A stretch of 7,509 nt of DNA from the IMG/VR virus record IMGVR_UViG_2695420486_000012; one strand, given 5' to 3'. This DNA is from a virus. Taxonomy: Duplodnaviria; Heunggongvirae; Uroviricota; Caudoviricetes. A model generated the notes under the pieces. It made no database searches. It saw only the letters and a list, made by a program, of their open reading frames with translations, and was not told the origin of the DNA. The position numbers were made by a program, and so were the translations under genes. Positions 7,117 to 7,443 of this stretch are shown here, in pieces. Numbering within the stretch: the first letter of the stretch is position 1; every line of letters begins with the position of its first letter.

Positions 7117-7353
7117 GTGCTGATTGGCTATGTAAGGGTATCAACAAATGACCAGAATACAGACCTGCAACGAAACGCTCTTGTTTGTGCAGGATATGAA
7201 CAAATATTTGAAGATAAATTAAGCGGAACAAGGACAGGCCGACCTGGATTAAAACGTGCTTTAAAGCGCCTTCAAAAAGGTGACGCACTGGTTGTCTGAA
7301 AACTGGACTGACTGGGTCACTGTATGCGGCATCTTGTCGTGCTGGTGGTGGAA
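7117..7353 (+). pseudogene. pin: Pin/Gin/Cin/Hin-family serine DNA invertase, 5' portion only; in-frame TGA after codon 60, second TGA four codons later, 3' two-thirds missing
   Basis: GTG at 7117 preceded by gggaga (7104-7109). Encodes MLIGYVRVSTNDQNTDLQRNALVCAGYEQIFEDKLSGTRTGRPGLKRALKRLQKGDALVV, which matches the invertase N-terminus including the catalytic Ser in YVRVSTNDQ. Then TGA (7297-7299) where the family has Trp. The same frame reads [17 protein letters not shown], recognisably the VVWKLDRLGRSMKHLISLVGE region. The resolvase-fold remainder and the C-terminal HTH are absent. Confidence 0.75.
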
Positions 7354-7443
7354 GCCTAGAAAAAGTATCGGGTGTTGCTGAACCGTGTTGATACATCAAC
7401 TGCACCTGATATTGAGTGGCCTACGAACCCTGTCAGGGAGTAA
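7354..7443 (+). pseudogene. Lambda-Tfa-like 3' fragment fused in frame to the pin remnant, with a TAG at the conserved Trp position
   Basis: Frame reads [28 protein letters not shown], versus lambda Tfa C-terminus [24 protein letters not shown] as recalled. TAG at 7357-7359, final taa at 7441-7443. Confidence 0.6.

Follow-up and report, generated by a model that had tools for sequence, protein, structure and literature searches.

Organization of the locus

The stretch of DNA analyzed here (the window; 7,509 nucleotides) corresponds to draft contig CXEB01000188.1 (GCA_001255275.1) except for an N at position 5464 in the record. Positions 5465–7509 were 100% identical to the chromosome of Shigella sonnei 53G (HE616528.1) and to further S. 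sonnei chromosomes, in which the locus forms part of a defective lambdoid prophage that adjoins trp, has a split J gene and is flanked by IS1. In 53G, the tail tip gene J, which lies upstream of the window (6004–9182 of locus L008), is divided into ORFs of 547 and 513 amino acids, and the prophage is bordered on its right by copies of IS1. Because the 53G prophage is defective, the fiber switch described below cannot serve phage host range there. When the whole window was compared by megablast with complete Escherichia coli genomes, coverage was at most 56%.

The canonical gene order in lambdoid prophages is J-lom-stf-tfa-hyp-methyltransferase (as at locus L004), but EC958, NCTC86 and S. sonnei bear a cassette instead. 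In the window, the region from the middle of stf to near the end of tfa was replaced by an invertible cassette of the myovirus type (Table 1). Homology to lambdoid stf stopped at about position 2202, and homology to the P2-like H gene began at about 2120. Between the two crossover sites, an stf C-terminus and its tfa on the plus strand face tfa' and an alternative stf C-terminus on the minus strand. Just outside the right site lies an invertase pseudogene that is fused to the end of a lambda-type tfa gene.

Table 1. Positions of the features in the 7,509-nt window.
Feature	Position	Strand	Remarks
stf, 918 aa	755–3511	+	Lambdoid N-terminal part joined via the left site to the expressed 'X'-type C-terminal cassette
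Left 26-bp crossover site	2598–2623		TTATCGAATACC-TC-GGTTTACAGGAA, core 2610–2611; inside stf
tfa, 175 aa	3513–4040	+	Partner of the expressed cassette
IS600 (IS3 family)	4200–5463	-	Placement doubtful; N at 5464 is a scaffold join
tfa', 177 aa	5592–6125	-	Partner of the silent cassette
Silent alternative stf C-terminal cassette, 'A' type	6278–7036	-	Supplies the 3' end of an 875-aa Stf when inverted, as in S. sonnei ATCC 29930
Right 26-bp crossover site, gix/pix-like	7037–7062		TTCTCGTAAACC-GA-GGTTTTAGATAA, core 7049–7050
Invertase pseudogene remnant	7117–7348	+	Codons 1–77 plus one base; translation, alignment, Pfam
Predicted Fis-dependent recombinational enhancer	7138–7201		Position and 97% identity to Mu gin
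TGA for Trp61 (TGG)	7297–7299	+	Codon alignment with Mu Gin, Fels-2 and Chris1
TGA for catalytic Arg65 of DRLGRS	7309–7311	+	Codon alignment; followed by Arg68 to His and Ser69 to Cys
3' fragment of lambda-type tfa	7349–7443	+	~31 terminal codons out of 194, continuing the reading frame of the remnant; alignment, Pfam

The assembly around IS600 requires caution. A 256-nt direct repeat surrounds the element (3942–4197 and 5465–5720; 96% identical) and coincides with the N at position 5464. In complete S. sonnei chromosomes, IS600 is found at window position 3223 instead and there is no such repeat. An unusual duplication was therefore rejected in favor of a scaffold artifact, and the contig around IS600 is probably mis-scaffolded or a chimeric join. 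In addition, positions 2593–4199 showed 13 SNPs relative to the lambdoid copy of 53G and were 99.9% identical to the silent cassette of a P2-like prophage (L019). Near-identical cassettes may have been merged by the draft assembly, or cassettes may have been exchanged between prophages. In view of the scaffold and of these P2-like-copy SNPs, the left half of the window should not be over-read.

Structure of the invertase remnant

The frame at 7117–7443, whose computed translation begins with VLIGYVRVSTNDQ in agreement with the string in the preliminary description, consisted of codons 1–77 of a Gin/Pin-family invertase joined in frame to about 31 terminal codons of a lambda-type Tfa, with the natural TAA of the fused frame at 7441–7443. 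In the stop-masked translation, Pfam matched Resolvase at residues 3–83 (E=1.6e-19) and Caudo_TAP at residues 80–105, the latter corresponding to profile positions 105–130 of 131 (E=2.2e-10). Both matches are far above chance. A Pfam match to HTH_7 was not found in the remnant; intact 195-aa paralogues gave Resolvase together with HTH_7.

The remnant itself was a mosaic. Positions 7117–7307 were gin-like, differing from Mu gin at 6 of 191 positions (97% identity). From 7308 the sequence diverged sharply from gin, and up to 7348 it was of the Cin/Fels-2/Chris1 type (MRHLVVLV). The first two in-frame stop codons aligned with Trp61 and Arg65 of the motif VVWKLDRLGRS in the invertases of Mu (Gin), Fels-2 and Citrobacter phage Chris1. 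The catalytic-serine motif YVRVSTNDQ was present, and the catalytic-arginine motif DRLGRS was lost, reading D*LGHC (Arg65 is TGA and Arg68 is His). Taken over the whole remnant, the further changes were Cys27Tyr, Asp41Gly, Thr57Ala, Arg68His and Ser69Cys. Everything from codon 78 on was absent, including the E-helix and the HTH DNA-binding domain, and about 77 of the approximately 195 invertase codons were left. An uninterrupted invertase ORF of ~185–200 aa was likewise absent, with two in-frame stops preceding the breakpoint and homology ending at 7348 (codon 77/78).

Because of the stops at Trp61 and Arg65, the Arg68His change and the loss of codon 78 onward, 7117–7443 can, judging from its sequence, encode no active invertase. 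The preliminary description had come to the same conclusion; it had placed the first stop after codon 60 and had assigned two of the three in-frame stops to conserved Trp positions and one to an Arg position. The alignments agreed with all three of these statements, and the missing E-helix and HTH domain, together with the stops and Arg68His, bear out its conclusion. Recoding or readthrough of the stop codons was rejected as a means of restoring the enzyme, since its C-terminal 60% is physically absent.

The segment around the catalytic-arginine motif was unusually altered. Between 7306 and 7323, six to eight substitutions fell within 18 nt over the DRLGRS motif (GACTGACTGGGTCACTGT compared with GATCGTCTCGGTCGTAGT in Chris1), and directly after this cluster 21 nt (7322–7342) were identical to Chris1. 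The near-palindromic form of the cluster (ACTGAC...GTCACT) hints at a templated multi-base mutation rather than at independent point changes.

Junction between the invertase remnant and tfa

In the Tfa fragment, a TAG at 7357–7359 stands where lambda orf-194 (Tfa) and intact lambdoid tfa genes have Trp, and the full-length Caudo_TAP domain (~175–194 aa) was absent. The intact lambdoid tfa at L004 (98.8% identical) showed unbroken homology from 7349, and positions 7346–7347 matched as well. Because invertase homology reaches 7348 and tfa homology is unbroken from 7349, the crossover is placed by the alignments at 7348/7349, inside an imperfect 8-nt microhomology, TGxxGGAA. An in-frame replacement of the invertase 3' part by a Tfa C-terminus had been proposed in the preliminary description, and both the alignment with lambda orf-194 and the Caudo_TAP match confirmed it; the breakpoint, which had been put at about 7351–7356, has to be moved to 7348/7349. 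Recombination by an invertase at a quasi-site was considered as the origin of the junction and rejected, as 7340–7356 does not resemble an AAACC-NN-GGTTT site.

In ST131 strain EC958 and in NCTC86, PGAP annotates both halves of the fusion as pseudogenes ('recombinase family protein, missing C-terminus' and 'tail fiber assembly protein, missing N-terminus'). Where a junction carrier lacks the Trp61 stop, the 64-codon remnant is accepted by PGAP as a valid CDS for a 'recombinase family protein' (e.g., WP_023150046.1), at 4528–4722 in L024 and L026 and at 4513–4707 in L025. This annotation is likely to propagate even though the product has neither the catalytic arginines nor the DNA-binding domain. 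A 45-aa 'hypothetical protein' ORF (WP_001309429.1 in RefSeq; window 7416–7509) extends across the tfa stop and runs into the convergent methyltransferase gene at that gene's 3' end. The same ORF is annotated beside intact tfa genes too (L004) and thus is not specific to the scar.

The window comes from a draft scaffold (N at 5464, IS600 dubiously placed), which could suggest that the stops or the fusion are errors of the draft contig. The affected part, however, lies within the region for which independent complete S. sonnei chromosomes show 100% identity, and hundreds of complete genomes obtained on different platforms have both the junction and the three stops. ST131 and NCTC86, with 99.6% identity, have the same three stops, and the PGAP pseudogene calls for both halves point the same way. 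We regard a sequencing or assembly artifact as having a negligible chance of being the explanation.

Crossover sites and predicted enhancer

The two 26-bp sites are inverted and share their central dinucleotide (cores TC and GA). Between the right site and the stop codons, the predicted 64-bp enhancer interval differed from Mu gin at one position, 7196. It contains two 15-bp G...C cores, 7138–7152 and 7187–7201, which would be the Fis sites, judging from their position and from the hin sites. The centers of these cores are 49 bp apart, and the proximal core lies about 96 bp from the core of the right site. Invertases of the Gin/Hin type need a Fis-bound enhancer in cis, 65 bp in length and about 100 bp from one site (PMC3798978), and that paper, referring to Kahmann et al. 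1985, locates the Mu enhancer within the invertase gene. The core spacing in the remnant fits the Hin enhancer geometry given in PMC3798978. We infer that the remnant, although dead as a gene, would supply the enhancer for the switch.

Distribution and history of the junction

Of 5426 complete E. coli genomes, 538 contained a 90-nt sequence spanning the junction; a search of 50,697 phage records gave no match. Positions 7300–7372 were identical among prophages with different flanks. The 13C1065T prophage sits beside bio, and both CREC-532 and 13C1065T carry the junction at other chromosomal sites than the window lineage; in CREC-532 and EC7 the downstream DNA was different, and in EC7 the Cin-like N-terminal part was only ~80% identical to the window. 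EC7, CREC-532 and 13C1065T all had the Arg65 TGA with the His and Cys changes, and TGG at both Trp positions. Among the junction carriers examined, the Trp61 TGA was confined to the trp-adjacent prophage lineage (S. sonnei, ST131 and NCTC86).

Because the Arg65 TGA was common to every junction carrier examined, it is, together with the junction, ancestral to all of them. The Trp61 TGA, the Tfa TAG and Cys27Tyr are later changes in the trp-adjacent lineage of S. sonnei, ST131 and NCTC86, and the gin-like 5' part, on the sequence comparisons, must have recombined in after the junction had formed. The preliminary description had overlooked that the scar is one conserved, widespread junction resulting from import of an invertible cassette into the lambdoid stf-tfa region, and not local decay in one strain.

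We propose the following history. A myovirus-type (P2/Mu/P1-like) invertible tail-fiber cassette, comprising alternative fiber C-termini, two tfa genes, two 26-bp crossover sites and an invertase gene, would have entered a lambdoid prophage and replaced the region from the middle of stf to near the end of tfa. The left join would have formed where lambdoid Stf and the P2 H gene share conserved sequence, and at the right join an illegitimate crossover at 7348/7349 would have linked the invertase, at codon 77/78, to the ~31 terminal tfa codons in the same frame. Because the E-helix and the DNA-binding domain were lost in it, the invertase would have been dead from this fusion onward. Later, ~190 nt at the 5' end would have been overwritten by a gin-like allele via homologous recombination. 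Both crossover sites have survived, and so has the 5' region of the gene, the location of the enhancer in Gin/Hin systems; the switch itself is not dead. The segment would still be inverted in trans by an intact Gin-family invertase, most plausibly from a co-resident P2-like prophage.

Orientation of the invertible segment

The inverted state was scored with a post-inversion junction query in which the inner half of the left site was joined to the dead gene, with matches accepted at a coverage of at least 80%. This junction, which brings the X-type cassette beside the dead gene, was found in 152 complete E. coli genomes, and the arrangement present in the window, with the A-type cassette beside the dead gene, in 239. 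Many ST131 genomes were contained in both sets. Isolates with adjacent accessions or shared naming were split by orientation: U12A versus U13A–U15A; 4/0 versus 4/1-1 and 4/4; and, within the S series, S3, S4 and S9 versus S2, S5–S7 and S13. An exact inversion of 3.1 kb, with the half-sites exchanged precisely at the core, distinguished EC958 from JJ1886 (99.8% identity); their dead genes were identical.

The same was seen in S. sonnei. The window orientation was present in 53G, CP044191, CP029794, CP179997 and CP032523, and the opposite orientation in ATCC 29930 (CP026802) and JANXIY010000004; positions 7042–7509 were 100% identical to the window in all of these, in both orientations. A SKESA-type contig (L022) showed the second state, and one draft contig (L011) held the junctions of both states. 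L011 and a further S. sonnei-type draft, L018, interleave pieces of the lambdoid and P2-like prophages and contain recombinant site junctions of both states, reflecting either population heterogeneity that confused the assembler or real inter-prophage recombination at shared sites.

Orientation differences between assemblies could in principle be rare old events, but they recurred among isolates with adjacent accessions or from a shared series. A RecA-dependent homologous recombination between inverted repeats, in place of a site-specific invertase acting in trans, was also weighed. NCTC86 (L002) has the same A-type fiber C-terminus at both ends of the segment (5980–6750 and 8202–8975), forming an inverted repeat of ~770 nt, and therefore both orientations would encode nearly the same fiber tip there. 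Such a repeat could support homologous inversion. In S. sonnei and ST131, however, the inverted repeat is only ~32–36 bp and imperfect (as is also seen in Table 3 of PMC4134206), and the point of exchange is precisely the 2-bp core of the canonical 26-bp sites. The separate EC958 PacBio contig in the alternative orientation, described in the same paper, implies that the two states coexisted in one culture and fits an enzyme-driven switch. Homologous inversion is therefore very improbable as the source of the two orientations, and we favor inversion by a site-specific invertase supplied in trans.

Intact invertases of P2-like prophages

The P2-like prophages of S. sonnei-type assemblies (L009, L011, L018 and L020) carried an intact 195-aa Gin-like invertase, and the P2-like prophage of ST131 strain 1162C an intact 199-aa invertase. 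These intact Gin-like invertases had Resolvase and HTH_7 domains and an intact DRLGRS motif. The crossover sites of the P2-like prophages were nearly identical to those of the lambdoid locus, and their copy of Tfa' matched the 177-aa Tfa' of the window at 150 of 178 positions. The preliminary description had allowed, as a fallback, for inversion in trans by another Gin/Pin-family enzyme, and the presence of intact invertases in P2-like prophages of the same lineages favors this view. The trans-acting enzyme would most plausibly be the invertase of the co-resident P2-like prophage.

The preliminary description had nevertheless preferred a switch that is probably locked: without an invertase in cis, the segment would stay fixed, with the current stf/tfa pair expressed. 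There is no doubt that the invertase is dead, and the intact enzymes above come from sister assemblies. In several S. sonnei chromosomes (L027 and L029–L033), moreover, the left part of the prophage has given way to IS600 at window position 3223, leaving one local crossover site. For the lineage as a whole, this preference is contradicted by the occurrence of both orientations beside the dead gene, with an identical remnant in S. sonnei and likewise in ST131, by exchange at the 2-bp core, by draft contig L011 and by the two states reported within one EC958 culture (PMC4134206). A locked switch is accordingly an unlikely description of the locus.

In L027 and L029–L033, IS600 interrupts the X-type stf C-terminus and is followed by lysis genes of another prophage, not by stfN-lom-J. 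In these IS600-at-3223 chromosomes, the ~12.5-kb locus that was read contained the right crossover site only, the left site being absent. The switch in these chromosomes probably cannot flip locally, and the arrangement looks like an IS600-mediated rearrangement that would lock it.

Taking the evidence together, we consider it highly likely that the locus combines an import scar, a dead invertase and a switch that is flipped in trans.

Discussion

The scar is real, and for Phi4 of ST131 strain EC958 the truncated invertase has already been described and inversion in trans proposed (Forde et al. 2014, PMC4134206). The present analysis adds where the breakpoint lies and that Tfa is the fusion partner, shows that the remnant is of mosaic origin, puts the stops in order, gives the prevalence of the junction and documents the orientation polymorphism in S. 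sonnei. A dead invertase beside an invertible segment does not mean a fixed segment, because Gin-family enzymes of other prophages can act on it. Since inversion in trans is possible, assemblies of ST131 and S. sonnei would differ, or be mis-assembled, at this locus for biological reasons. The junction also provides a handy marker for a single, old import of the cassette, which has since spread among lambdoid prophages.

A more speculative reading, to which we give little credence, is that the remnant has been kept for its Fis enhancer and that the locus is a 'satellite' switch that borrows the invertase of P2-like prophages and is maintained because alternating Stf serves the host. If so, the switch would be kept up in ~10% of E. 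coli genomes and in S. sonnei through the alternation of a cryptic-prophage Stf, and the service to the host might be, for example, receptor blocking against incoming phages, as shown for PinQ/StfE2.

Comparison with known systems

The closest known system is Phi4 of EC958, a homologous lambdoid prophage locus beside trp/ompW. According to Forde et al. 2014 (PMC4134206), the same two 26-bp sites appear there as Phi4_5prime and Phi4_3prime, bounding a 3106-bp invertible segment with alternative PacBio contigs, and PacBio reads show both orientations in one culture; the Phi4 invertase is described as severely truncated, and the Phi1 invertase was proposed to act in trans. The dead invertase/tfa junction of Phi4 is 99.6% identical to that of the window, with the same three stops. 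The two loci differ in host (S. sonnei, not ST131), by 3 bases over 6800–7509 and by the IS600 inside the segment of the window contig, the placement of which is doubtful. The Tfa fusion, its breakpoint, the mosaic remnant, the order of the stops and the prevalence of the junction are absent from the account of Phi4 in the available text of that paper.

The cassette also resembles the Mu G segment with gin, the P1 C segment with cin and the e14 P segment with pinE, which are Gin-family, Fis/enhancer-dependent systems. As in these systems, the 26-bp sites are inverted and have a matching GA core, alternative fiber C-termini and tfa pairs face each other, and the invertase gene begins ~67 bp outside the right site, its first 191 nt here being 97% identical to Mu gin. 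In contrast to them, the cognate invertase is a truncated pseudogene, so that an enzyme is needed from elsewhere, and the cassette is located in a lambdoid (siphovirus-type) stf and not in a myovirus.

For the proposed action in trans, the e14 prophage offers a parallel. PinQ of the Qin prophage was shown experimentally to invert the e14 P segment in trans (PMC12529663); there, as we propose for the present locus, the invertase of one cryptic prophage flips the tail-fiber segment of another on the same chromosome. Unlike the present locus, e14 keeps its own pinE. At e14, the switch has a phenotype, in that StfE2 blocks T2 adsorption (PMC12529663), and the locus described here would gain in interest if its flipping Stf had a host function such as that reported for PinQ/StfE2 in K-12.
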